Of a stretch of DNA of 53,986 nt, positions 1 to 14,252 are shown one piece after another; position 1 is the first letter of the stretch; every line of letters starts with the position of its first letter. Made by a program: the position numbers and the translations under genes. Location: positions 1 to 53,986 of IMG/VR virus record IMGVR_UViG_3300042311_001046; one strand, 5' to 3'. This stretch comes from a virus (lineage: Duplodnaviria > Caudoviricetes). The notes beneath the pieces were generated by a model that was not told where the DNA came from, did no database searches, and saw nothing but the letters and a program-made list of their open reading frames with translations.

Positions 1-3000
1 TCTAATGAGCCAAAATACATTTTAAAGTTTGTTGGGTCAAACAAAACTTTTGCCTTTGTATCTCCAGAAGATGCTGAAAAACTTAAACTATCAACGTCTT
101 TGTACTCTGAATCCAAAATTTCGGTTCCGTCTTGACTATAAGAGTAATATCTTAAAGATGCGGAATCTGAAGAAATATCAAAAGGATTATAAGTTAAATT
201 AAATGAACCTATAACAGTAATTGTATTAGTTTTTGTTGATGTTGGAGTATTAGTATTGGTAGGTGTCACAGTTGAGGTATTAGTGTTAGTAGGTGTTGCA
301 TTTGGAGTCTTCGTTATAGTTGGAGTATTTGTAGAAGTCTTTGTTACAGTTTGAGTTGGTGTTGGTGTCTGAGTTGGACTTACTTGAGGTTGAAAATCTA
401 TATTCATGCAACCGGCAAACAATAATTGAGACGCCCCGTACATATTCGAACCTGCAACATTTGGGTTTCCGAATAAAGATACAGGTGAGTAAGGTGATTC
501 ATTTGGAATTTGGTATAAATCTGAGTAACCTGCTAAAATTTGAGTAGAACTTTCAAGAAGTACAAACCCACTATTCTGCACAATAGGATTTGATACCTGA
601 AAATCGACCTCAAATTCACTTGTGTCATAATCATATTGTGTTATGTAAAATGTTTCTGGTGTACTATTTATGAAGTTTGGTATAATTAATTTTGAGTTAT
701 CATTAAGTATAAAGTTAGAACCTGGTGATACTTTTCTTCCAGTTGCCAAACAGAATAGTGGTGTAACGGAAATGTTATTAGGGTCAGTTATATTCATTTG
801 AATAAAACAAGAAGTTGTTGTTCCTGTTGCGGCAATAATTGTAAAGTCGTCTATTGCAAGAATACCTGGTCCTATGTTAAAGTTTAAAGATATATCTTGT
901 GAATATGTTGCAACAAATGGAGATAGTGTTATATCCCAAACTCTTAAATAATTGTAGTATGGACCAACAGGGCCTCCTTGTTTAAACTGAGTAAATAATT
1001 TTCCTTCAGTATGTGTTAAATCACCGGCGGACACACTTAAATTAGGTACTACTAATTCTGCCGACTCATTAGGACTACTAAAACTATATTTGTAAATTCT
1101 ACTCTCAGCTCTTACTAATGCATCACATAAACCTACTGAAACTGGTGTAAGTTCTACAGGTAGACAACCAACATTGTATTTTTGTGATGCACCATATATA
1201 TCGGAAATTGCCGTTGGGTTACCAAATAAAGTTAAAGGACTATACGGAGAATTGAGAGGTACATTATAAATGTCATTTTTACCAATTAAAAGTTGCGTTT
1301 CACTCTCTATTATTACAAAATTATTAAAAGTTGTATTTCCTTCGGATGCAACTAAGACATCTTGTTCCTCAAAACCTGTTGTATAATCAAACTGAGTTAA
1401 ATGATATGTAATTGGGCTAAATCCGTCATCGTGTGTGTTTGACACAATTAATTTACCATTGTCCGTTAAAATAAAATTAGACCAACGAGAAACTTTTCTA
1501 TTTGGTGATAAACAGAATTTATCTGTAACACCTATATATACTGGGTCAGTAATGTCTATTTCAATAAAACAAGAAGTTGTACTACCTGTTGAGACTATTA
1601 ATGTTGTGTTACTAAGAGCAAATATGCCCCATCCTATTTCAAAATCTAAACTAATGTCTTCTATGAAGTCCGCACCAAACGGAGATAAGTTTAAATCCCA
1701 AACTCTTATTGAATCTATTATTGTATTTGAAGTACTACCGAATTGGGCAAATAATCTTGTTTCAGTATGTGTAATATCTGCTGGGGTAATAGTTAAATTA
1801 GGTATAACAAGTTCTGTTGATGTGTCTGGTGAGTTTGTGTCGTACTTATAAAGTTTTGATTGACCTCTTAATAAAATTTCACAGCTAGTTACTACTTCAG
1901 TGTTTGTTGTAAATCCACTTCCTACAAGACCGCAATCATCAAAAATTGGAAGTTTAGTAGGAGTTATAGTTGGTGTTGGTGTCGGAGTTGAGGTCGGGTT
2001 AATACATCCACAACTTCCAGTATAAACTATACCATTTCCAGACAATCTGATTACATCAAATGCGCATAAAGATGAACCGTACTGAGTTGAATACATGGTA
2101 AATTGATTTACTTGTATTTCACTTGTTGTATTGTCACAATAGGTTACCTCAAAATTACTTCCACCTGTTTGGGTTCCCCCGTACATATCAAAATTAAAAC
2201 AACATCTTGTTGGAGAAGGTGTTGGTGTTTTTGTTAAAGTTGGTGTTGGGGTCTTGGTTCTTGTTGGTGTTGGTGTTGGAGCGCAAGGGTCGATTTCAAT
2301 AAAACATGTTAAATCACATGGATTAAATGTATATCCATCAGGACAAGAATATCCACTAGAAGTGTAATTTCCCGTTAAAGTTTGAACCGTAGTGGCGCTC
2401 GTTTGTCCGCTAGATGAAAATAAAATATTCAAATCAGACAAATCAGTTGCCGATATTAATTCTTCAGCTGTATTATCATAAATTTCACATCCAAATCCCG
2501 CCGCGGAAGGAGTTACACCATCACCCAAAAAAGTTCTGTTTAATCCATATAACTCAATTACATGGTCACCTACCGATAGATTTACTGGATACACGTGCCA
2601 ATAGATAAACCCTAGATTCCCCCCCGAGGGGCAACAATATGGGCCGGAAAAAGTATTAACAAACTCAACTCCGTCTACAACAAATCTAAAACTATTATCC
2701 GCACCTAACCCAATCCAATAAGTTTTAGTTTCAGGAACAGTAATACAAACACTAAATCCTAACCAAGTAAGTATTGGAAAATTAACAGCGTCTGTTGCCC
2801 ATATACCACTTCTATTTAATGGTCCATCGGAAGAGCTGGTATTCTTCCAAACTGAGTTAGTATCCAATACCGCTAAGTAAATATTACCAGGGCTAGTACC
2901 ATTAGGATTAAATGGGTCATGAATTATTGTCCCCATCAAAGTATTAACATCATTTCCAATACCATTTGATGAAACATTAACAATCGCATCGGCAGATGGG

Positions 3001-4472
3001 GGAGTTGCCTCAATTGTAACAATTGTTGTAAAACAAATTGTTGGTGTCGGTGTTGGAGTGGCAGTTCCTGATGGTGTGGGTAATAAAGGTGTTATTCTAA
3101 AACTTTGTTTAAAGCAGTCAGTTAATTGAGACGTTCCATTAATTCTTTCGTTTATGTTAGTTTCAAAAGTTATATTATAAGGATAATTTAAATCCATAGA
3201 ATAACTCTGACCATCAGAACTGTTGTTTACAACAAATATGTTATTATCAAAAGAATATAAACCGGCAGGAGATGGAACCGTACTTGTGATATTAATTTCA
3301 ACTTCTGGCCCTTCAGTTAAGTCATATTGATTAACAAAGGTGTTACCTTCGCCGTCTTGATTTGTTATAAGTAGTTTATTACTAGAATTATATGAAATGT
3401 CTCCAGTTACAAATCTTCCGTTAGTTAAGAAAAATAAACTAGATGGTACACCTGTGTTTGTTGTAATATCTAATAATAAAATTTCATCTGGAATATTAGG
3501 TACATCTGAACTTCTTGATATAACTAACGTAGTGTCATTAATAACTCCAAGACCATTACCAACATTTATGTTTGGTAGTTCTATTAGACGAGAATATTCA
3601 ACACTAAACGGGAAAAGTGATACTATATCCCATTCTTGTATATGTGTTTCCCCAAGTAACCAAAGAGTCTCTTCTGTATGTGCAATATCCAAATTATAAT
3701 TAGATATACTTGGACCAATAAAAAATGAAGTTAGATTTAATGACGTATTTGTAACCGGGTTAAACGCATAAACTTGTCCTGACTTAGTCACATAAAGTAC
3801 ATCACATTCATTAATATATGGAAATCTAGTTGGAGTTGGAGTGACAGTTGGAGTTCTTGTTGGTTTTGGTGTTTTATTTGGTGTTCTTGTTACGGTTGGA
3901 GTTGGAGTTGGTTTTTGCGTACTTCTTGGTGTCCTTGTTACTGTTGGAGTGGATGTAGGTCTTATTATTGGACATCTACCATCTATACAAGGTCCAACAA
4001 GTACTGAAGTCACATATGAAGATGCTGTAAACGCATTTGGTGACATACAAAGAGGCTCTGAACTATTATTGTCTATCGTAGTTTGAGTAAAATCACCTTT
4101 GCAATCATAATATTTTAATTTTCCATCATTACCTGTATTGTTTATAAAAGTATAACAAAAACAAACTGAAGTTGGTGTAGGTGTAGCCGTTTTGGTTGGG
4201 GTCCTTGTCGGAGTTAGTTTAGGGTTAGTTCTTGTTGGTGTAGCGGTTTTGGTTGGCGTAGGTGTTGGGGTTGGACAGGGTATTGAAAAATCACAGGTTT
4301 CATTATATTCTGGAAAATATAAGGTATAAGTACCAAAATAGTAGTCGGCTTCGTAGTTATAAGGTATTGTGACATAACCTATTGTAATTGTACCACCTGT
4401 ACACGGATAAAACGTGACTAAGGCAATTTGACCCTCAAAATTTTCTGACGTTATTTGAACTACTTCTGGCAT
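1..4472 (-). CDS. Large modular Pro/Thr-linker protein (at least 1490 aa, runs off the window's left end); putative virion surface or fibre protein
   Basis: Absent from the ORF track, consistent with no stop codon inside the window. ATG at 4472 gives MPEVVQITSENFEGQIALVTFYPCTGG...; the same frame was confirmed at ~2620, ~1890 and position 3 (..DPTNFKMYFGSL). Contains PT linkers, Cys modules and three copies of a ~245-aa beta-rich domain. Confidence 0.85.
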   Translation of the reverse strand, partial: MPEVVQITSENFEGQIALVTFYPCTGGTITIGYVTIPYNYEADYYFGTYTLYFPEYNETCDFSIPCPTPTPTPTKTATPTRTNPKLTPTRTPTKTATPTPTSVCFCYTFINNTGNDGKLKYYDCKGDFTQTTIDNNSSEPLCMSPNAFTASSYVTSVLVGPCIDGRCPIIRPTSTPTVTRTPRSTQKPTPTPTVTRTPNKTPKPTRTPTVTPTPTRFPYINECDVLYVTKSGQVYAFNPVTNTSLNLTSFFIGPSISNYNLDIAHTEETLWLLGETHIQEWDIVSLFPFSVEYSRLIELPNINVGNGLGVINDTTLVISRSSDVPNIPDEILLLDITTNTGVPSSLFFLTNGRFVTGDISYNSSNKLLITNQDGEGNTFVNQYDLTEGPEVEINITSTVPSPAGLYSFDNNIFVVNNSSDGQSYSMDLNYPYNITFETNINERINGTSQLTDCFKQSFRITPLLPTPSGTATPTPTPTICFTTIVTIEATPPSADAIVNVSSNGIGNDVNTLMGTIIHDPFNPNGTSPGNIYLAVLDTNSVWKNTSSSDGPLNRSGIWATDAVNFPILTWLGFSVCITVPETKTYWIGLGADNSFRFVVDGVEFVNTFSGPYCCPSGGNLGFIYWHVYPVNLSVGDHVIELYGLNRTFLGDGVTPSAAGFGCEIYDNTAEELISATDLSDLNILFSSSGQTSATTVQTLTGNYTSSGYSCPDGYTFNPCDLTCFIEIDPCAPTPTPTRTKTPTPTLTKTPTPSPTRCCFNFDMYGGTQTGGSNFEVTYCDNTTSEIQVNQFTMYSTQYGSSLCAFDVIRLSGNGIVYTGSCGCINPTSTPTPTPTITPTKLPIFDDCGLVGSGFTTNTEVVTSCEILLRGQSKLYKYDTNSPDTSTELVIPNLTITPADITHTETRLFAQFGSTSNTIIDSIRVWDLNLSPFGADFIEDISLDFEIGWGIFALSNTTLIVSTGSTTSCFIEIDITDPVYIGVTDKFCLSPNRKVSRWSNFILTDNGKLIVSNTHDDGFSPITYHLTQFDYTTGFEEQDVLVASEGNTTFNNFVIIESETQLLIGKNDIYNVPLNSPYSPLTLFGNPTAISDIYGASQKYNVGCLPVELTPVSVGLCDALVRAESRIYKYSFSSPNESAELVVPNLSVSAGDLTHTEGKLFTQFKQGGPVGPYYNYLRVWDITLSPFVATYSQDISLNFNIGPGILAIDDFTIIAATGTTTSCFIQMNITDPNNISVTPLFCLATGRKVSPGSNFILNDNSKLIIPNFINSTPETFYITQYDYDTSEFEVDFQVSNPIVQNSGFVLLESSTQILAGYSDLYQIPNESPYSPVSLFGNPNVAGSNMYGASQLLFAGCMNIDFQPQVSPTQTPTPTQTVTKTSTNTPTITKTPNATPTNTNTSTVTPTNTNTPTSTKTNTITVIGSFNLTYNPFDISSDSASLRYYSYSQDGTEILDSEYKDVDSLSFSASSGDTKAKVLFDPTNFKMYFGSL

Positions 4473-4516
4473 CTTTTTTAAAATAAATATCTTTACTTTT
4501 TTATTATACTAATTTT

Positions 4517-4858
4517 TTAATTAGTTATATTGTATTCTATATCACAAACTGGAACTTCAACAATTCCATAATCAATGTCACAAGGAGGAACAAATATTGT
4601 TACTCCTGAAATATCACAGTCAGGAACATTTATTTCTTCAGTGTAAATGTCTATTGGGGGGATGTCTATTACCTTTGGGAAGGTCCTGTCAATACTTGGT
4701 ATGTAAAAATAAAATGTACCGGCTAACTGGTCTGTTGTATATTGGAAAGGAAAAGTACCTGAACCTAAATCTATTCTTGTATTTGAGTCATACTTTGAAT
4801 ATTGTACTTTTATCGCCTGCCCTAAAAATGTTTTACTTATAAATCTATAGGTTATCAT
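4517..4858 (-). CDS. Small putative structural protein with three PxCDI repeats
   Basis: 113-aa ORF overlapping the stop of the upstream gene (ATGA). N-terminus resembles those of both neighbours; C-terminus has VPDCDI/VPPCDI/VPVCDI. Confidence 0.65.
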   Translation of the reverse strand: MITYRFISKTFLGQAIKVQYSKYDSNTRIDLGSGTFPFQYTTDQLAGTFYFYIPSIDRTFPKVIDIPPIDIYTEEINVPDCDISGVTIFVPPCDIDYGIVEVPVCDIEYNITN

Positions 4859-5391
4859 GGTATTTCTACAACAGTTATATCATTTATGGTTCCACCAGTT
4901 GCGCAGTTTGGACATCTTGGGTCAAACATTTGGAATTTAGTTTTGAGTAAATCAAAGTTGTGTACAATTTCAGAGGCATTTAATGGCTCCACATACATTC
5001 TAAATTGACTTATTCCACCATCAAAAGTACCTGCAAAATTTGGTTCAATTAATATATTGGTTGTAAGTGCCGATAAACTTGTTCCTGATAATGTTTGATT
5101 TGGCATTACTTCAGGGTCTTGTTGATATGGAGCGTCAAATGTGTAAGTTATTGGACCTGGTATTGGTGGGGTAAATACTGGTAAAGTTTGTCCCGAAATA
5201 ATTGAAAAGGAACAAGAATAATTAAAACCTGTAAAATTTAAAATATATTCTCCGTAAAAATAGTCTGTAGAATAGTTGTAAGGTATTACTTGAGAGCCCA
5301 CATTAACTGTTCCTCCTGTATCGGGGTTATATGTTATTACAGCGGTTTGACCACTATAATTATTACTACCAATTTTAACAGTTGCCGGCAT
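4855..5391 (-). CDS. Protein carrying the C-terminal strand of a LamG/ConA-like domain
   Basis: FDGGISQFRMYVEPLNASEI matches the LamG_3 terminal motif FxGxIxxxRxYxxxLxxxEI. The N-terminal 65 aa are paralogous to the ORF starting at 4472. Confidence 0.7.
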   Translation of the reverse strand: MPATVKIGSNNYSGQTAVITYNPDTGGTVNVGSQVIPYNYSTDYFYGEYILNFTGFNYSCSFSIISGQTLPVFTPPIPGPITYTFDAPYQQDPEVMPNQTLSGTSLSALTTNILIEPNFAGTFDGGISQFRMYVEPLNASEIVHNFDLLKTKFQMFDPRCPNCATGGTINDITVVEIP

Positions 5392-5414
5392 CCAAAAACT
5401 TTATTTAATAAATA

Positions 5415-6047
5415 TTAAAGTTGTTGGAAATACTTTTGTATTCTTTGACTTAATCTAACTCTTGGGTCATTTTCACTTCGACCGACAACATCATATGGAA
5501 CAATAAAACCAAAACTTAAAAAAACTCTTCTTGAGTTAAACTCGTTTGTCCAATGTTTATAAAGAGATGCTTCAAACCCATAAAGGTCAGTTTGTTCAAT
5601 ATTAATTGAATCATCACCAATGAATAAATCATAATTTTCAGATAATACACTAATATTACATTTGTAATTAATGTAACCGTTAATAGATGCATCATAATGT
5701 GGATTAATTTTTCCACCTTTATTCATATCTACCGCTTGTAGAAAAATATTATCTTTTGGAAAATTAAATTCCTTTGAGATTCTATCAATTATATTATAAA
5801 TGAACTCAGGTAATATATCTTGAGATACATCTGAAATTGATTGGAATTTTGTGATGTAGTTGGTAAGGGGTGTATTTGAAATATCAAAAATGCAAGACTT
5901 TCCTTTTAGTTCTTTGGATAATTCTGATAAATGATAATTACTATCATTTCCTGTGTGATTAACAGAATCAATCCAATTTACTATTTGGTGTACTTCATCT
6001 TTTGAGATAAACTTTTTTTTTATCTTATAGGTTTCCGTGTTTTCCAA
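5415..6047 (-). CDS. 2OG-Fe(II) dioxygenase (prolyl hydroxylase-like fold)
   Basis: HxD (INPHYD), distal His (YKHWT), Arg-x-x-x-S strand (RVFLSFGF), N-terminal KKFISKDE motif. Confidence 0.75.
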   Translation of the reverse strand: MENTETYKIKKKFISKDEVHQIVNWIDSVNHTGNDSNYHLSELSKELKGKSCIFDISNTPLTNYITKFQSISDVSQDILPEFIYNIIDRISKEFNFPKDNIFLQAVDMNKGGKINPHYDASINGYINYKCNISVLSENYDLFIGDDSINIEQTDLYGFEASLYKHWTNEFNSRRVFLSFGFIVPYDVVGRSENDPRVRLSQRIQKYFQQL

Positions 6048-6285
6048 TCTTTTTCAAATTGTGTTTTGCCAAAAATTCCTTTGGGTTCATTGCCTCAATT
6101 ATTGTTAGTTCGGCTGAGTCCATAAGTTCTTTTGCCCTTTCTTCGGGAACCGCCATAACACATAATTTATGAGTTGCCGGTAATTCTCCTGTTGGTGACA
6201 AACTTATTTTTAAGATGTTGTCATTTTTCATTTTTTCTCTTGCTTGTGAAACTTTTGATTCTTCACATAATATACAAATTCTCAT
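6025..6285 (-). CDS. Hypothetical protein
   Basis: 86-aa ORF packed co-directionally between its neighbours. Confidence 0.65.
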   Translation of the reverse strand: MRICILCEESKVSQAREKMKNDNILKISLSPTGELPATHKLCVMAVPEERAKELMDSAELTIIEAMNPKEFLAKHNLKKIGKHGNL

Positions 6286-6291
6286 AATTTT

Positions 6292-9200
6292 TTATTCATT
6301 AATATTTTTTATTGTTAGTGTATCACTTGAATCGTAATATGATAATCGTTTGTTTCCTCCTTGTCTTTCAAAAATCTGACAAGTGTAAGTTTCATAAACA
6401 GATGGATTAACACTAATACCTGTAACAGTAATGACAACATCGTCAGCAGGAGTTGCTCCACTTATTTGAGTCCCTAATATCGTTATTGTATTACCGGTTT
6501 GGTATAATCTACCATCAGAAAATCCACTAACACCTATTACCGCTCCACCCGAAACCTCAACATCAAAAGTTGCTCCTGTACCAATTCCATTTGTAGTGCC
6601 AGATAAATCAGTATAAACGGCATCAGTTCCGGTTGTCCCATTAGCAACATATGTAACCCCTGTTATGTTTCCATAATTTGTTGTAAAATCAGTGTTATTT
6701 ATAACTGTGTTAACAATGTTCCACTGAAAATAATCTCCTATGGTGTTGTTCTCAAAATTATCAGCAATTGTATTGTTATAGAAATACTCACCTATTGTAT
6801 TATCAACAAAATAATTACCTATGGTATTACCTTGTGGTTCGCCACCTCCGTTTCCAAAATTTTCACCTATTGTGTTATTACTAAAACCGACACCGATATT
6901 GTTATTGGCAAAATTATTACCAATAGTGTTTGAAAAGACACCACCTTTAAATGTATTTTGGTAAACATCACCCAAAAAGTCATTACTATCAATATTGGGT
7001 CCGAAGGTATTCTGACTACAATACCCACTAATTTGATTTCCTCCAAATCCCCAATCTAATCTATTTTGGTAAAAACTATCATACGTTATATTGCCCTTAA
7101 ATTCGTTGAATATTTGGTTATCATAAAAATCACCATATATTGTATTGTTTTCAAATTGTTCACCGATTCTATTTGTGGATGTCTCTCCACTTATTGAATT
7201 ATTATTGAATCCAGAAGCAATTTCATTTTTATTGAAGTCATTTATAATTTCGTTATTTTGAAAATCAAAACCAATTTGATTATCTTCGAAATTATCACCT
7301 ATGATATTATCTTCGAAATTATTACCAATTACATTATTTCTAAAATTATTACCATTATTTGTTTGTGTGTAAATTGAGTTCCATTCAGTATCCTGCGGTG
7401 AAACGCTAGAATTCCACGACCCCTCTGTTGCAATATTATAAATACCATCTGAATCACCCCTAGTTATTTCAACAACGCCTTCAACAATAATGTCAACTTC
7501 AGACCCATAATTAGTTTTTGTAAAGGTAACTGCTGAACCTATATTATTACCGTTAGAATCAATTTCTTGTCTGTCATATTGGAATCCACCCCCATTATTA
7601 CTTTGTGTCCATTGAGTAAATTTAATTTTAAAGTATTGTGATGTTGAAATTATTTTCATCACTAATTCTTTACCTAATACTTTATTATCTAAATCACCGC
7701 TAACAGCGTCATTAAAAAGCTCGTAATTTCTTGTTGACAGTGTTGATAAATCATTCCAACCAAATAGAGTATAGTTATAAGGTCTATTATCTCGAAAATC
7801 TATCCCTACATTGTTTTCATTAAAATCGTAGCTAACTATGTTATTGTAAAAATAATAACCTGTGCTATTATTATAGAAATCATCATATACCTTGTTATTA
7901 TTGTACCCATTACCAATATTATTTAGAGCAAAATAATCACCAGTTTGATTATTATTAAAACCATTTAATATTGTATTACCAATAAATTCACCATTTATGG
8001 TATTATCTTGGAAATTAGTCCCTATTTGATTATTTTGGAAATCTTCTCTTATAGTATTATTATTAAAATTATTACGAATGTAATTTCTGTAAAATACATT
8101 CTCAGTTAAGTTACCAAAATCACCAATTGTATTATTGTTAAAACCATCTAATATTTCATTTTTATAAAATCTAGAATAAATAATATTATTATTAAAACCG
8201 TTACCAATTATGTTATCCTCAAAATCATCATCATTTTCAGCTAATAGTTGGTTATTGTTAAAATCATTTCCAATATGGTTATCGGTTATATTGGTATTTA
8301 TTAGGTTATCGTGAAAATAATGTCCAATTATGCTATCATCTATATCGTTTGTTGAAACGTTATTATAACAGTAATCACCCCAAGTATTATTTCCATTATC
8401 AGTACCCCAAGTATTATTATAACAATAGTCTCCAAATTTATTACTTTCGTATTCACCTTGTATAAACACATTATTTGCTAATATAAATGTTCCATCCGAT
8501 ATGTTTGTGTAGTTGTTTGCGTAATTACCTACATAGTTATTTTTGGCATAATTTTCAGATATGGCGTCACCAAATGTTGTGTATTCTATAAAATCATCTG
8601 TTTTAACATTTGTTCTTTTGTAACTAAAATATCCTCCATATTCATCATCATTAGTAATCTCCTCAACAGCTAAATAAAACGCTGAACCTGCCCCAGCAGT
8701 AGCTATTGTATCACCAGAAACCGTCATTGTCACATTATCATCAATAGTAACAATTTCATAATAACTAGGGTCGGCATTAGGTATATAAACAACATCACCA
8801 ACGGTTAACGCTGTAAAAGATGTGTTATTACCCTCAACAGTACCATCATTTAATAACTCTATGGTACCATTTAAACGTAGTCCTTCTCTATTAGTATACA
8901 AACGATATCTTTTGAATAAAATCGTTCTATGGTCATAATCTGTTCTGTTATTGAACTCATCAATTCTTTCAGTAATCCTACCTTTAGCAGGACCTGATGT
9001 TACCTCTGTTAGGTTCCAACTTATATCATAAGATATTTTATCTTGTGGATATAGTGTTGAATAAACTGTAGGTGAAAACCCTGTTGTTGATGTTGCCAAC
9101 AATAATATAGGTTCTGTTGTCCCTGTTTTATAGTTGCCCGTTGTTATTGGAGTACTATCACTATTATAGTTTGGTTGGTCATAACAAGTTTGATAATCGG

Positions 9201-9399
9201 TCATCAAGTAAAATATACCAGACGTTAATGTTCCACCTGTATATAATGAATATAACTCGTCATATGTTACCTCAACTGTTGAGTTAGAAGTAATTGCTGA
9301 AATTGCTCCTTGATATGTTGTTCCTTCATCAACAAATGGAAATGTACTTGTTGAAGTTAGATTCCCTAAAGGTAATTCTGAAATTTTTACGTTAGCCAT
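6292..9399 (-). CDS. Asn-rich beta-helix repeat protein; putative tail fibre or spike
   Basis: N-terminal VKISELP motif typical of phage fibres; dozens of 9-10-aa NxIGxxFxN repeats; beta-rich C-terminal GTGATFDVEVSGG domain. Confidence 0.7.
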   Translation of the reverse strand: MANVKISELPLGNLTSTSTFPFVDEGTTYQGAISAITSNSTVEVTYDELYSLYTGGTLTSGIFYLMTDYQTCYDQPNYNSDSTPITTGNYKTGTTEPILLLATSTTGFSPTVYSTLYPQDKISYDISWNLTEVTSGPAKGRITERIDEFNNRTDYDHRTILFKRYRLYTNREGLRLNGTIELLNDGTVEGNNTSFTALTVGDVVYIPNADPSYYEIVTIDDNVTMTVSGDTIATAGAGSAFYLAVEEITNDDEYGGYFSYKRTNVKTDDFIEYTTFGDAISENYAKNNYVGNYANNYTNISDGTFILANNVFIQGEYESNKFGDYCYNNTWGTDNGNNTWGDYCYNNVSTNDIDDSIIGHYFHDNLINTNITDNHIGNDFNNNQLLAENDDDFEDNIIGNGFNNNIIYSRFYKNEILDGFNNNTIGDFGNLTENVFYRNYIRNNFNNNTIREDFQNNQIGTNFQDNTINGEFIGNTILNGFNNNQTGDYFALNNIGNGYNNNKVYDDFYNNSTGYYFYNNIVSYDFNENNVGIDFRDNRPYNYTLFGWNDLSTLSTRNYELFNDAVSGDLDNKVLGKELVMKIISTSQYFKIKFTQWTQSNNGGGFQYDRQEIDSNGNNIGSAVTFTKTNYGSEVDIIVEGVVEITRGDSDGIYNIATEGSWNSSVSPQDTEWNSIYTQTNNGNNFRNNVIGNNFEDNIIGDNFEDNQIGFDFQNNEIINDFNKNEIASGFNNNSISGETSTNRIGEQFENNTIYGDFYDNQIFNEFKGNITYDSFYQNRLDWGFGGNQISGYCSQNTFGPNIDSNDFLGDVYQNTFKGGVFSNTIGNNFANNNIGVGFSNNTIGENFGNGGGEPQGNTIGNYFVDNTIGEYFYNNTIADNFENNTIGDYFQWNIVNTVINNTDFTTNYGNITGVTYVANGTTGTDAVYTDLSGTTNGIGTGATFDVEVSGGAVIGVSGFSDGRLYQTGNTITILGTQISGATPADDVVITVTGISVNPSVYETYTCQIFERQGGNKRLSYYDSSDTLTIKNINE

Positions 9400-9459
9400 T
9401 TTTAATTTTATTTATAAATATCTTTTATTTTATTAGTTATGTTTTTTATTTGTCTTTAT

Positions 9460-12204
9460 TTAACATGCTCCTGAAAATGTTAATGGGAATTGACACGGGA
9501 AAGCAACACCACCGCCAGGTCCTGTAAATACGTATGTATAAGTTCCGTCTGAAGATACAATTCCAACAAAACTTGTTGCCCCAATATTATCTGTTATAAC
9601 ATCATTCACTTGTATTTGTAAAGTTTCTGAAGTCTGAGTTAATTGAAGTGTATTACTGTTTATACTAGTCGCACCATTCCATAATGTTGGAACAACTATT
9701 TGACGAACACAATTTGGGGTAAATGACGGAGTTGGGGTTATTGTTGTTGTTGGGGTTTGTGTTGGAGTTTCAGTTGGCGTTGGAGTTTGTGAAGATGTTA
9801 TTGATGGTGTTGGGGTTTGTGTTGGAGTTTCAGTTGGCGTTGGAGTTTGTGAAGATGTTATTGATGGTGTTGGCGTGGGAGTAGGTGTTGATGTATTTGT
9901 TGGAGTTGGGCTTACACAAGTATTAATTTCAGATATAATAAAATCCCCTTCTTCTGTTAGAATGAAATTACCAAGTTCATCAGTTAGATATTGAACACAA
10001 GGGTTAGTTGATGTTGGAGTTGGAGTAGGTGTAATACAAGGATTACGTTCTGAAATAATATAATCACCGCTTTCAGTTAAAATAAAATTACCTAATTCAT
10101 CTGTTAAGTATTCCACACAAAGGTTAGTTGGAGTTACTGTTTGAGTTGGGGTTAATGTTGGGGTAGATGTAAATGAAGGAGTTGGTGTTGGAGTAAGTGT
10201 TGAGGTTTGAGTAACTGATGGTGTTGGAGTTGGAGAAATGAACTCTGACTCGAAAGTAAAATCGATGTTATTACTTATAGAAGATGGGGACACAACCAAA
10301 TTTTCAAACGAACTTGACCCGTTCAAAATGTTAAAATCTTCACCCAATGTTACAAGTGTATTCCCACTTATACCGTTTGGAGGTATTGAAACTGAAGAGG
10401 TTACTAAAATGTTATTTCCTGTTGTAGTTCCAAGTATATGAGTAAACTCAACGGTTATTGTGTCATTAATTGGAAACTCCGTATTTAAAATATATTCTAA
10501 CTTTATCGAACCTGAGCCTATTATAACAAGTAAGTTTAAACCAATCTCAACACCATAAGCAATGTCGCAAGCAGGTTTTGGGTCAAATGTTAAACTCTCT
10601 CTAAGACCTTGTGTTCCCCCACCCCAAGATATGTTAAATGGAACCCCAAGTTGTTTTTCCTTCTCAGCATTTAACCCTCTTGGAATTATTTCCTCAAATC
10701 CATTAATTACATAGAATAATTTTCCATTAACGTAGATTTTAAGGGCTCCAAGTCTATCTGATTTTTCTATTAACCATCTTTCATTTAAATTAACAATCTC
10801 AACTTGGTCAGGTGCAGGACTACCTGTGTGAGTAACAGGAGGTTCAATTAAATTGACCGTATTATTAGATAAACTATCAACGTATTTAAAGTTGGTAATT
10901 AATCCAAGACCTCCTCTGTAATATAAATCACAAGTATCAAACCAAGTATTTCTTTCCCAAACTGCATCAATTAAAACCCAATGTTCTTCAGTCAAAAAAT
11001 CAGGACCATTTACATCACAGTAATCATATATGTTTGATTCTGAACAATATTCTGTAACAGTATAACCCGTTTGATATGTTATCCCAGTAGTTGGAGTTGT
11101 TCCTGTAACAACACAATCGCCAGTAAACTTTAAAACTTTAACACATACCTTTGGATTTGACGGGTCTCCGTCTAATCTTAAAGAAAGTGCGTTTGACATC
11201 GAATCATACAATGGGTCTTTGTCAGGGTTCATAACTGTATTGTTATTACAACCACAGTTACAATCAATATTGTGTTCTACCGTATATTCTATTGGGTTAT
11301 AAACTTCAATACATCTTGAGTTTGTTACACCCGTATTATCACAAGCACAAGTCTTTAGAATACCTTCTAATGCTTGTGTTACTCTTGTATATCCACTATC
11401 AGATGCTGGTGAGCCTGAGGCATGGTGATAAAATTTATTTTCACCTCTTGCTCCAAAATAAAAAAATGTATTTTTATTTTCAGGGTAAACTAAGTTTAAA
11501 GTTGTTTCACCCGATTCAGGACCGAATTCATCAGACAATCTTGGTCTAATAATCATTTCAACAGACCAACCTTTATTTACTCTATTTGGAAAAGTTTCAT
11601 AATCATATCCAAATAATTTGAAAAACCCTTGATAAAAACCACCGTAAAGTTGGTTATATGTTCCAATTTGACTGTTTGTTTTGGAAACTATTTCATAAAC
11701 TGTCCTATCTGTATTTCCTGAAAATCTTTCATTAGGAGGGTCAGTATAACCCGTAACCTGAAACATTTTAAATCTTCTGTCAAAAGAATATCTATTAAAC
11801 TTGTCAACATCATCTAATAATCCCATAGTGAAAGAAATACTTTCACCTGACATTATATCCACAAGTCCATTATCAATAGCGGTTAATCCAATATCACATA
11901 AAGTGGATGCGGTAAACATATCCAAATTTTCATCATTTGGATTATAATAATTTAAAGAAACAAGGGTATTTGCCGAGTTATATATTCCATAGTTTAAAAC
12001 AAATAATTGTGATGACCCTGAATTATTTAAGTCAAAATAAATTGGTAATCTATTACCGTCATTTTGAGCAATTAAATTAGGTGAAAAAACAACTTCTTCG
12101 TTATAGTCCCTTTCATCTGATGCAAGATTTACATCAAGATTTTGACCCGCAGGTCTTAGAAACCATTTTTTATAATTATATTCTCTAATATTCTGTTGCG
12201 ACAT
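9460..12204 (-). CDS. LamG-like structural protein lacking the terminal strand, fused to Pro/Thr repeats
   Basis: LamG-like strands [26 protein letters not shown] and ISWGGG, followed by a beta domain, PT linkers and two [21 protein letters not shown] repeats. Confidence 0.7.
9748..9873. repeat. Perfect 60-bp tandem duplication in a PT linker
   Basis: 9751-9810 is identical to 9811-9870; each unit encodes [20 protein letters not shown]. Confidence 0.95.
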
Positions 12205-12210
12205 CTTACA

Positions 12211-12237
12211 ATAAATACAAGTTTCCGTGTATTTATA
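12211..12237. promoter_or_regulatory. Divergent pair of TATTTAT motifs (putative late promoters)
   Basis: ATAAATA at 12211-12217 (TATTTAT on the minus strand, before ATG 12204) and TATTTATA at 12230-12237 (before ATG 12251). Confidence 0.6.
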
Positions 12238-13572: not shown

Positions 13573-13860
13573 ATGGCAACTTTCGAACCGTTAGATTTCA
13601 ATCAACCTGATAATAAATTAACTCAGGTCGCTCAACAAATTAGAACATCACAACTAGTTAAAAATGACTACAGCAATGAAAATCAATTCAGCTCAACAAG
13701 TCCTGATGCGATTTCAGATGGAGACATTAGAGGTAAAGGTACTGGAACTTTTTTGGACACATCTCAAGGTGGTAATTCTATTGACGTTATGGAAAGAATT
13801 AACAACATCAAGATTAACCAATTTAGTTTCGACAAACCTTACCAAGTTCCTGGAACGTAA
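13573..13860 (+). CDS. Hypothetical protein (putative structural)
   Basis: 95-aa ORF coupled to the next gene by TAATG. Confidence 0.7.
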   Translation: MATFEPLDFNQPDNKLTQVAQQIRTSQLVKNDYSNENQFSSTSPDAISDGDIRGKGTGTFLDTSQGGNSIDVMERINNIKINQFSFDKPYQVPGT

Positions 13861-14252
13861 TGAGACTTTACAATACGATAAAGCAAATTATCTTAGAAAA
13901 GTCCTTTGACCAAATTGCGAACTCTGTTAGAAACAAAAATCTAGTAACAATTTACTACGATGGAGAAGACAACGGAGGTAAAGGTTTAAGGGTTATAGAA
14001 CCATTTTGCTTTGGAGTATCAAAGGCCGGAAACGCAGTTATAAGAGCATGGGAACGAGAGGGGGCTTCCTTTACTGCACAAAAAGGGGAGCAACCTCTAC
14101 CTGGTTGGCGTCTTTTTAGGGTGGATAGAATTGGTAGTTATAATGTAGACCCAAGGGACTCATTTAATGAACCAAGACCACTTTACAACCCTAACGACAA
14201 AGGAATGAGTAGTATTAAACTTTGTGCAAAATTTGAATTAGAGGGAACATGA
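13860..14252 (+). CDS. Stand-alone WYL-domain protein
   Basis: VTIYY..RVIEP..G...IRAW...WRLFRVDRI signature; no HTH domain. Confidence 0.85.
   Translation: MRLYNTIKQIILEKSFDQIANSVRNKNLVTIYYDGEDNGGKGLRVIEPFCFGVSKAGNAVIRAWEREGASFTAQKGEQPLPGWRLFRVDRIGSYNVDPRDSFNEPRPLYNPNDKGMSSIKLCAKFELEGT

Follow-up and report, generated by a model that had tools for sequence, protein, structure and literature searches.

Can a structural gene of a phage be cut inside one of its folded domains and be maintained as two separate genes? The question is raised by a 53,986-base virus record (IMG/VR record IMGVR_UViG_3300042311_001046), the whole of which was analyzed and is referred to here as the window. On its minus strand, the window carries an open reading frame (ORF) of 914 amino acids (aa) at 9460-12204 and one of 178 aa at 4855-5391, both of which are intact. 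The initial annotation took these ORFs to be the two halves of a single laminin G-like (LamG) gene, lying 5.4 kb apart and joined in frame by a 9-bp direct repeat. The existence of a split is confirmed here: the gene in question, designated gene A, is a single frame in related phages and two ORFs in the window. The locus is interpreted as an old, recombining gene fission that most likely works by fold complementation between the two products, a reading held with some confidence rather than with certainty. The parts of gene A, and the modules that adjoin the break, are as follows:

10582..12204, minus strand: N-part of gene A (residues 1-541 of the 914-aa ORF, ending ...GLRESLTFD), homologous to residues 1-541 of contiguous relatives of 633-641 aa
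10210..10575, minus strand: domain X, an immunoglobulin-like (Ig-like) module (residues 544-665), directly after the break in every split N-half
5197..5391, minus strand: N-dom (residues 1-65 of the 178-aa ORF), common to the 1490-aa and 113-aa ORFs and to many fiber-like proteins
5128..5196, minus strand: C-half linker (residues 66-88), of equal length in the aligned C-halves and holding the right-hand TFD tripeptide
4855..5127, minus strand: C-part of gene A (residues 89-178 plus stop codon; YQQDPE...FDGGISQFRMY...CPNC), homologous to the last ~90 residues of contiguous relatives

Homologs were sought using residues 1-560 of the 914-aa ORF as the query, and 1400 proteins were returned. Contiguous full-length relatives of the kind anticipated by the initial annotation were found among them, including P0009 (641 aa), P0018 and P0023 (both 639 aa), and P0022 and P0026 (both 633 aa), with the junction no more than 8 residues from TFD. 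In these proteins, the N-part (...GLRESLTF) is followed by a linker of ~11 residues and then by Y.QDPE...FDGGISQFRMY...CPNC, which is equivalent to the last 90 residues of the 178-aa ORF. P0009 shares 94% identity with the window N-part, and its final residues are the same as those of the 178-aa ORF. Given that contiguous homologs of 633-641 aa exist, the split is established far beyond chance. Among the best 120 protein homologs, 26 are split N-halves with domain X and 86 are contiguous, with 3 more that were missed by the search pattern; the rest comprise two proteins with in-frame inserts (P0021 and P0062), one truncated protein and two that lack the motif.

A survey of 130 related loci, in which some contigs were counted twice, gave a similar range of states. 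The two parts of gene A are contiguous in 104 loci, where they lie 9-33 nucleotides (nt) apart and are connected by a linker of 3-11 residues. In L103 and L123, the parts are separated by 207 nt, in frame and with no stop codon. Both halves are present, as separate genes, in a further 18 loci drawn from 13 contigs, and N-dom stands directly before the C-part in all 18. The remainder are L003 and L044, which are split forms ended by a contig edge, and four loci retrieved for N-dom alone. Across the split loci, the halves are 0.86-7.5 kb apart, and the C-half lies downstream of the N-half, in constant order, on all 13 contigs that carry both. The initial annotation had suggested that cassette content be compared among related phages, and this content differs, with the same split in divergent lineages. 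Only the N-half extension, and no separate gene, lies between the halves in L055 and L062-64; the extension, a fiber-like gene and homologs of the 86-aa and 210-aa ORFs of the window are found there in L035 and L046-48, and L045 has these plus further DNA. Two of these 13 contigs, all of them distinct from the window, are complete genomes (one of 321,403 bases that has terminal repeats, the other of 322,372 bases), and gene A is present in them only as two halves, with no intact copy.

Both halves are under purifying selection, and the constraint on them is equal to that on contiguous genes. For the C-part of nine split loci (72 codons), the proportion of nonsynonymous differences (pN) was smaller than that of synonymous differences (pS) in all 36 pairs. 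The ratio of nonsynonymous to synonymous substitution rates (dN/dS) had a median of 0.13 for the split C-part (31 finite pairs; 0.03-0.07 in the least saturated pairs) and of 0.18 for contiguous genes (1164 pairs), figures that should be taken as rough. Per-site conservation in the C-part correlated between split and contiguous forms (rho = 0.70), and 24 of the 28 columns invariant in contiguous genes are also invariant in split ones. The entropy of the split C-part was 0.57, as against 0.59 ± 0.07 in size-matched contiguous subsets. The equivalent comparison of the N-part gave a rho of 0.79, with 138 of 152 invariant columns kept.

The modules at the break are informative with respect to its history. 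Every split N-half runs into domain X (KPxCDIxxGV...) at the same residue. Among the sequences retrieved, domain X was found solely in split N-halves (at site 541 and, with 38% identity, at a second site in L031/L032), plus a weak stretch in P0096; a domain-X search limited to shared words returned split N-halves only and no donor gene. In the aligned C-halves, the linker before the C-part is ungapped except for one column. In a tree of 86 N-doms, all 20 that belong to C-halves fall within one supported clade of 23, the other three members of which are fragments of 49-89 aa. Given the shared domain X junction, the ungapped C-half linker and the single N-dom clade, the split architecture, as read from these sequences, arose once. 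N-dom has three paralogs in the window, in the 1490-aa ORF (3-4472), the 113-aa ORF (4517-4858) and the C-half (5197-5391), and a HMMER search placed it at the N terminus of dozens of representative proteins, which range from 79 to 1727 aa. It may serve widely in the docking of fibers.

The N-part tree (61 distinct rows, 53 contiguous and 8 split) requires four changes of the split state, at least three of which are forced by supported branches, and a single change was sufficient in 0 of 200 bootstrap trees. The approximately unbiased (AU) test rejects one split clade with a log-likelihood (lnL) difference of 538.6 and a p value of 7e-38, for a group that was named after the tree was seen. The locus nearest to that of the window, L004, is contiguous, and the contiguous P0009 is 90-98% identical to the window N-part in every 60-residue stretch; sliding identity between the window N-part and 13 close relatives detected no recombination breakpoint. 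Because split alleles are scattered among contiguous ones in the gene tree, exchange by homologous recombination is indicated, and the simplest reading of these sequences is that the whole block would be gained or lost by homologous recombination in the gene A flanks. Within the block, the 86-aa and 210-aa ORFs (5415-6285) are 99% identical to their counterparts in L045 (9108-9975), whereas the flanking gene A parts are 57-64% identical, a mosaic pattern which suggests that part of the cassette was recently exchanged between lineages that are otherwise divergent.

The initial annotation held that the break separates the terminal strand of a LamG domain from the strands before it. Here, no Pfam family was assigned to either window ORF at E values up to 1. 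Among relatives, positions 4-89 of the Laminin_G_3 model (PF13385; 151 positions, gathering cut-off of 27.6 bits) matched residues 200-280 of P0049, within the N-part, at a sub-threshold 22.6 bits, and positions 105-150 matched the C-part of L004 at a sub-threshold 18.4 bits. In total, 24 of 32 C-terminal segments and 17 of 48 full-length relatives matched the model, all below the cut-off. When the ...ISQFRMY..PL...E..HNF end was compared by hhalign with the termini of three genuine Laminin_G_3 domains, the match was weak (E = 0.0064, probability 5.9%). Sequence searches of the PDB with profiles A2 and A5 gave zero matches and one match at E 0.15, respectively, and a language-model search returned 24 of 30 named matches from the Laminin_G_3 family, at 0.95. 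The domain starts in the N-half and ends in the C-half (model positions 4-89 and 105-150, respectively), which places the cut inside the domain, albeit from matches that are all weak. The cut thus appears to lie inside a lectin-like domain, one that carries very large Cys-rich insertions, before its last strands; this part of the earlier claim stands, whereas LamG identity itself is only weakly indicated by matches that are sub-threshold. Residues 96-153 of the 178-aa ORF also match the extreme C terminus of phrog_8510, a 1348-position “virion structural protein” family (E = 2.4e-4).

Prediction of a complex between the two products, another check put forward by the initial annotation, was performed with N-half residues 1-665 (32 split N-halves aligned) and the 178-aa protein (21 C-halves aligned). 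Scores of 0.79, 0.74 and 0.77 (median 0.77) were obtained, as compared with 0.00 for the best of three controls. A score of 0.77 was reached by 58 of 80 solved complexes and by 2 of 110 mismatched pairs, counts that apply only roughly here, since custom alignments were used for the present prediction. Contact agreement between runs was at least 59%, and the predicted local distance difference test (pLDDT) score of the partner was at least 67. The predicted complex sets the C-part strands against the sandwich strands of the N-half, which is itself modeled at low confidence. The lowest-error pairs were N-half residues 213-216 with C-half residues 131-137, 219-220 with 125-127, and 549-551 with 6-8. 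The first two of these fall in the modeled contact of N-half 213-220 (GWSVEMII) with C-half 125-137 (GGISQFRMYVEPL), and further contacts are predicted for N-half 407-417 and 491-502 with C-half 136-153. The pairing of N-half 549-551 with C-half 6-8, which joins the first strand of domain X to the first strand of N-dom in the model, was unexpected.

The mechanism proposed on this basis can be described as follows. Gene A would encode a structural protein of ~640 aa in uncultured lake-water jumbo phages, consisting of an N-terminal region and a Laminin_G_3-like sandwich with large insertions. One predicted surface loop of this sandwich is occupied, depending on the allele, by a linker of 3-11 residues, by in-frame domains, or by a whole cassette that ends and restarts the frame. 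In the split form, the N-half (residues 1-541) runs on into domain X, PT linkers and a conserved end domain, after which fiber-like and accessory genes may follow; the C-half consists of the docking-type N-dom and its linker, followed by the last ~90 residues of the proposed sandwich, and each half has its own upstream TATTTAT motif. The two polypeptides are predicted to reassemble non-covalently, with the C-half strand ...GGISQFRMYVEP... pairing with ...GWSVEMII... of the N-half and closing the sandwich. Domain X and N-dom would touch at the break, and this part of the particle would gain extra modules. After its single origin, the split would have been passed from lineage to lineage, or lost again, through recombination in the flanking homologous sequence. 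Completion of the fold in trans, which the initial annotation had listed together with duplication and reciprocal loss, is the best supported mechanism given the equal constraint on the two halves, the lack of an intact copy in the two complete genomes and a model that passes its controls; the duplication part of that suggestion is treated below as an alternative.

The loop at which gene A is broken also accepts material without a break. In L103 and L123, ~65 aa that include Cys are inserted in frame between LTF and YQQDPE, and the distance from LTF to QDPE is 172 residues in P0021 and 293 in P0062, as compared with 9-17 in ordinary forms. In each of these forms, the fold must close around the inserted residues, and, as judged from such alleles, the loop between ...GLRESLTF and Y.QDPE... 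is tolerant of extra material, that is, a putative permissive display site. Variable modules are likewise attached to the ends of both halves and of contiguous genes, with Peptidase_C1 in P0175 and P0086, Fib_succ_major in P0177, and DUF4874 plus DUF4832 in P0106. L036-L042 have ~264 nt (~10957-11222) in place of seven codons of the window, between N-part residues 320 and 328, and this may be a further in-frame insertion site.

A second split site was found at residue ~151-158 of gene A in L031 (7776-11647), L032 and L033 (7188-11755). Here, an N-terminal piece of ~151-154 residues leads into a module resembling domain X (38% identity, L031/L032) and then into PT linkers or other modules. A fiber-like gene of 195 or 326 aa comes next, with a start (M..I.IS.L) like that of the 1035-aa ORF in the window. 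The remainder of gene A then restarts with its own ATG (MAI or MSR before RFSGNT...), with the C-part contiguous and without N-dom. Since the same cassette build occurs at two sites, a cassette of this type entered gene A at each of these positions. A more general proposal, which is offered tentatively, is that domain-X-led fiber cassettes break a structural gene, and leave it functional, at two or more surface loops (~541, within the lectin-like sandwich, and ~155) and combine a clasp, a plug-in socket and a host-range polymorphism spread by recombination among co-circulating jumbo phages. The clasp at site 541 would consist of domain X and N-dom, held together non-covalently beside the re-formed sandwich, as in the complex model, and the cargo of the socket would be fibers, a papain-like peptidase, DUF4874/DUF4832 and Fib_succ_major.

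Several observations weigh against reassembly in trans or against its generality. dS is saturated (>1) in most of the pairs from which selection was judged, and linkage alone would keep two adjacent genes together. The sandwich fold, and with it the loss of strands from the N-half, is drawn from sub-threshold Pfam matches, a weak hhalign alignment and a language-model lead. In the complex model, the pLDDT of the N-half is no higher than 49-51. The two halves of a cut domain can, in addition, score well because the model remembers the intact fold, such that a high score is a sign of likeness and not of binding. In the second split type (L031-L033), domain X is present and the C-half has no N-dom; thus, a clasp of domain X and N-dom is not a general requirement. 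Finally, P0224 (875 aa) starts with MTYQQDPE at the C-part boundary, lacks N-dom and continues into a long PT-rich extension; it may represent another kind of C-half.

One alternative is that the halves are independent, the N-half working in the absence of the last strands (which domain X might replace, or which might not be needed) and the C-half having been co-opted, for example, as an N-dom-anchored protein. Such independence would suit the constant presence of domain X after the break and the modules that some C-halves have acquired for themselves (Peptidase_C1 in P0175, Fib_succ_major in P0177), with which they could act alone, and the low-confidence N-half model leaves room for a solution in cis. 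However, domain X is also present at the ~155 site, where no terminal strands are missing, and is thus not a specific replacement for them; moreover, the C-part retains nearly all of the columns that are invariant in contiguous genes, its order downstream of the N-half is the same on every two-half contig, and its strands are placed on the N-half sandwich by a model that separates clearly from its controls. Independence is accordingly regarded as rather unlikely. Joining of the two products by a covalent route (a split intein or RNA trans-splicing) would find a possible handle in the conserved Cys that opens domain X (KPACDI) in site-541 splits. The same module lacks this Cys at the second site, however, and neither ORF has an intein or Hint family by Pfam at E values up to 1. 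N-dom is common to many unrelated fiber proteins, no His-Asn followed by Cys, Ser or Thr precedes the C-part, the N-half extension runs for 370 aa with PT linkers, and Rfam and tRNA scans of the window were empty, with no intron. This route is considered extremely unlikely. A programmed, excisable or invertible host-range switch that restores the 633-aa gene by recombination at the repeat was one of the possibilities listed in the initial annotation. The repeat is indeed direct and in frame, and the linker length of the fusion occurs in nature; nevertheless, Pfam identified no recombinase, invertase or homing endonuclease in the cassette ORFs (1035, 86 and 210 aa) or in 10 neighboring ORFs, in a window that represents 18% of the genome. 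Neither a direct nor an inverted flanking repeat longer than the 9-mer was found around the block, the 9-mer itself is not conserved among split relatives, and the split is stable in divergent lineages. Contigs of runs X1, X2 and X8 cover both junctions with no differences, and none of the 15 joints listed, out of 21, connects ~5142 with ~10590, although contigs drop rare variants and a rare excised form is untouched by this result. The switch is thus highly improbable, and host-range variation may instead arise at the population level.

How the split arose, and whether the 9-bp repeat records the event, was assessed from the two junctions. Exactly two copies of the 9-mer GTCAAATGT are present in the window, in frame in both genes, and the TFD that they encode corresponds to residues 539-541 of the 914-aa ORF and 84-86 of the 178-aa ORF, such that joining at the repeat gives a protein of 541 + 92 = 633 aa, as originally described:

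10582..10590, no strand assigned: left copy of the 9-mer (minus-strand ACATTTGAC, TFD), which straddles the end of homology to contiguous genes
5134..5142, no strand assigned: right copy of the 9-mer, 6 nt to the cassette side of the point at which homology restarts

In a blastn comparison with the contiguous L004, homology extends from 12295 to 10585, inside the left copy, and then from 5127 to 4904; at the break, 33 nt of L004 correspond to 5457 nt of the window. The junction with homologs is therefore not at the 9-mer, given that homology stops inside the left copy and restarts 6 nt beyond the right one. Natural contiguous linkers are ~8 residues longer than that of the 633-aa fusion, apart from those of L041 and L042, which are as short.

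A true footprint of cassette entry into the lineage of the window, whether a target-site duplication or microhomology, would agree with these two short linkers. It would also agree with the state of L003, where 8 of 9 bases match the 9-mer at the left junction, and of L044, where all 9 match it at the right one. When homology boundaries were defined independently and other same-strand zones were taken as controls, a 9-mer shared near both boundaries was found in only 0.8, 1.9 and 4.2% of control zones (±15, 30 and 45 nt, respectively). Against this, 0.91 copies of the 9-mer are expected window-wide and two or more occurred in 26 of 100 shuffles, an ordinary count. The two 9-mers of L043, the only other contig with both junctions, agree at just five of nine bases, deeper split lineages have TFN/ILD or IPK/DLF at these positions, and the T and F of the left copy are conserved residues of gene A in any case. 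The junctions are old, given that their positions are identical in all lineages, and an exact footprint should have decayed, given that synonymous sites are saturated. The repeat is probably incidental, chance coincidence being judged quite likely and a true footprint improbable. Of the cassette insertion with target-site duplication suggested earlier, the insertion fits the layout of the locus, whereas the duplication does not, since the repeat is not conserved and lies off the homology boundary. Alternatively, the split could have arisen by regional duplication followed by reciprocal loss, with the present-day mechanism as proposed above. The contiguous P0096 has a weak domain-X-like stretch after a complete C-part, which makes an ancestor with the order N-part, C-part, domain X conceivable, and N-dom genes lie downstream of gene A in the contiguous L039-L042. 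Such a route would, however, take three or more events, as compared with one for insertion, none of the 130 loci represents an intermediate in which the C-part is duplicated, and the domain-X-led cassette at the second site of gene A is more simply accounted for by insertion; duplication and loss is hence considered unlikely. An old fission, probably by insertion, with completion of the fold in trans is the reading retained here.

The remaining features of the interval between and beside the halves are as follows:

12211..12217, minus strand: TATTTAT of the 914-aa gene, 7 nt upstream of its start codon
9715..10209, minus strand: PT-rich linkers and a 120-nt tandem duplication (residues 666-830 of the 914-aa ORF), repeat families D1 and D6
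9460..9714, minus strand: C-terminal domain of the 914-aa ORF (residues 831-914 plus stop codon)
6292..9399, minus strand: 1035-aa repeat-rich, fiber-like ORF with 27-nt periodic repeats, with homologs at the same place in L035, L045 and L046
6025..6285, minus strand: 86-aa ORF of the cassette, 99% identical in L045
5415..6047, minus strand: 210-aa ORF, probably 2OG-Fe(II) oxygenase or Asp/Arg-hydroxylase-like, 98.6% identical in L045
5408..5414, minus strand: TATTTAT of the 178-aa gene, 17 nt upstream of its start codon and within the 23-nt gap after the 210-aa ORF

Identity to L003, L045 and L046 is 95-96% over the final 84 residues of the 914-aa ORF, as compared with only 57% in the gene A parts. 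DNA similarity to these loci (74-83%) continues past the end of this ORF into the start of the 1035-aa gene (9460-9714 and 8902-9399). The end domain may serve to dock the product of the next gene. No Pfam or PHROG family was identified for the 1035-aa ORF. Of the block contents originally described, the PT linkers and the fiber-like gene are present as stated; the dioxygenase is a lead from a protein-language-model search, in which the 210-aa ORF fell near 2OG-Fe(II) oxygenases (score of 0.95, 177 shared features), Pfam being blank for this ORF. The 210-aa ORF is probably a 2OG-Fe(II) oxygenase or an Asp/Arg-hydroxylase-like enzyme, and it sits among PT-rich fiber genes. Contigs from three lake runs show several joints at 9777-10211, in the PT-linker and repeat region, that skip 179 to 427 bases, which suggests linker-length variation between strains or assembly slippage.

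The 914-aa, 1035-aa, 178-aa and 1490-aa genes each have, 7-17 nt before the start codon, the TATTTAT motif that the initial annotation ascribed to both halves. On the plus strand, the window has 21 copies of ATAAATA. Nine of these (at 4483, 5408, 9414, 12211, 39551, 43222, 44270, 45694 and 47555) precede minus-strand gene starts by 7-31 nt, and the genes concerned include the portal gene and further structural genes. TATTTAT is a candidate late-promoter-like motif. A σ70 promoter scan (61 sites, as compared with 48.3, S.D. 7.4, in shuffles) and a terminator scan (5, as compared with 3.0, S.D. 1.6) were uninformative. Elsewhere in the window, a 130-aa ORF (13860-14252) matches the WYL domain at 24.4 bits (cut-off of 21.8), close to cytidylyltransferase-like, exonuclease-like and dUTPase ORFs.

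The window, which is 18% complete according to CheckV, represents ~54 kb of a genome of roughly 300 kb and includes a major head gene and a portal gene. Given that relatives are found on contigs of up to 321-334 kb, the window is a jumbo phage fragment. At least half of the sampled words of the region were present in 22 lake-water DNA runs, and no match to the region, to the 914-aa ORF or to the 178-aa ORF was found by megablast or tblastn among 50,697 deposited phage records. An RNA-library run, X23, yielded nine short contigs, 90-99% identical, that belong to a relative. One of these covers 5183-5436, and they do not constitute evidence of transcription. Gene A relatives in L133 and L134 are on contigs of 4.4-4.7 kb binned in a Bacteroidetes and a Tissierella metagenome-assembled genome (MAG); these are probably mis-binned phage DNA and give no reliable host signal.

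Taken at the level of one loop of one protein, gene A presents a series that runs from a short linker through in-frame insertion to full fission, in which the halves can be as much as 7.5 kb apart. The states are represented across many lineages, complete genomes included. Such a graded series allows the tolerance of cuts within a domain, and the addition by phages of receptor-binding or enzymatic modules, to be tested. Should the halves reassemble, they would constitute a natural split β-sandwich pair and a possible tool for protein engineering. For annotation, small ORFs that contain only the last strands of a domain can be read as fragments of split genes rather than discarded. The intermixing of alleles suggests, in addition, that gain and loss of cassettes by recombination is common in the diversification of fibers in lake jumbo phages.

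Laminin_G_3 and other concanavalin A-like lectin domains are common in phage fiber and baseplate proteins. Gene A resembles them in its motif pattern and in partial matches to the model but differs in that no match reaches the family cut-off. To our knowledge, no Laminin_G_3 member is encoded as two genes, and a literature search found no description of a split lectin-like phage structural gene. In the donor-strand complementation of chaperone-usher pili, and in split GFP, an incomplete β-fold is completed by a strand of another polypeptide. The complex model predicts the same for gene A, with a strand from the C-half completing the sandwich; unlike the dedicated pathway of the pili or the laboratory constructs of GFP, the arrangement would here be a by-product of viral gene fission. 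The invertible tail-fiber segments of phages Mu (G segment, Gin) and P1 (C segment, Cin) depend on an invertase and inverted repeats. They share with the present locus a constant N-terminal fiber part combined with alternative distal modules, which alter host range in Mu and P1. By contrast, no invertase or inverted repeats were found here, and the variation is between genomes and not within one.

Genes in more than one piece have been described in other phages. “Fractured genes” with split inteins and a free-standing endonuclease have been reported mainly from phages and metagenomes (Dassa et al. 2009, PMC2677866). As compared with the cases outlined in that report, gene A has no intein motifs at its junctions and no endonuclease, and its products would stay unligated. 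The closest likeness is to the “genes in pieces” of T4-like phages, in which genes are split by homing endonuclease insertions and which include nrdA of Aeromonas phage Aeh1 (mobE), the topoisomerase genes 39/60 of T4 (mobA) and the DNA polymerase genes 43A/43B, with reassembly of the pieces demonstrated for NrdA and gp43A/B (Edgell et al. 2010, PMC2988022). As in the examples given there, gene A is contiguous in related phages, its N- and C-terminal ORFs are collinear with foreign DNA between them, and its two polypeptides would have to reassemble, which is predicted here from the complex model. Gene A differs from those examples in that a structural protein rather than an enzyme is affected, with the cut apparently inside a sandwich domain, and in that no homing endonuclease (HNH or GIY-YIG) lies between the halves, L055 and L062 being without any gene at that position. 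In further distinction from the T4-like cases cited, both pieces of gene A gain domains, and split, in-frame-insert and short-linker alleles coexist in many lineages.

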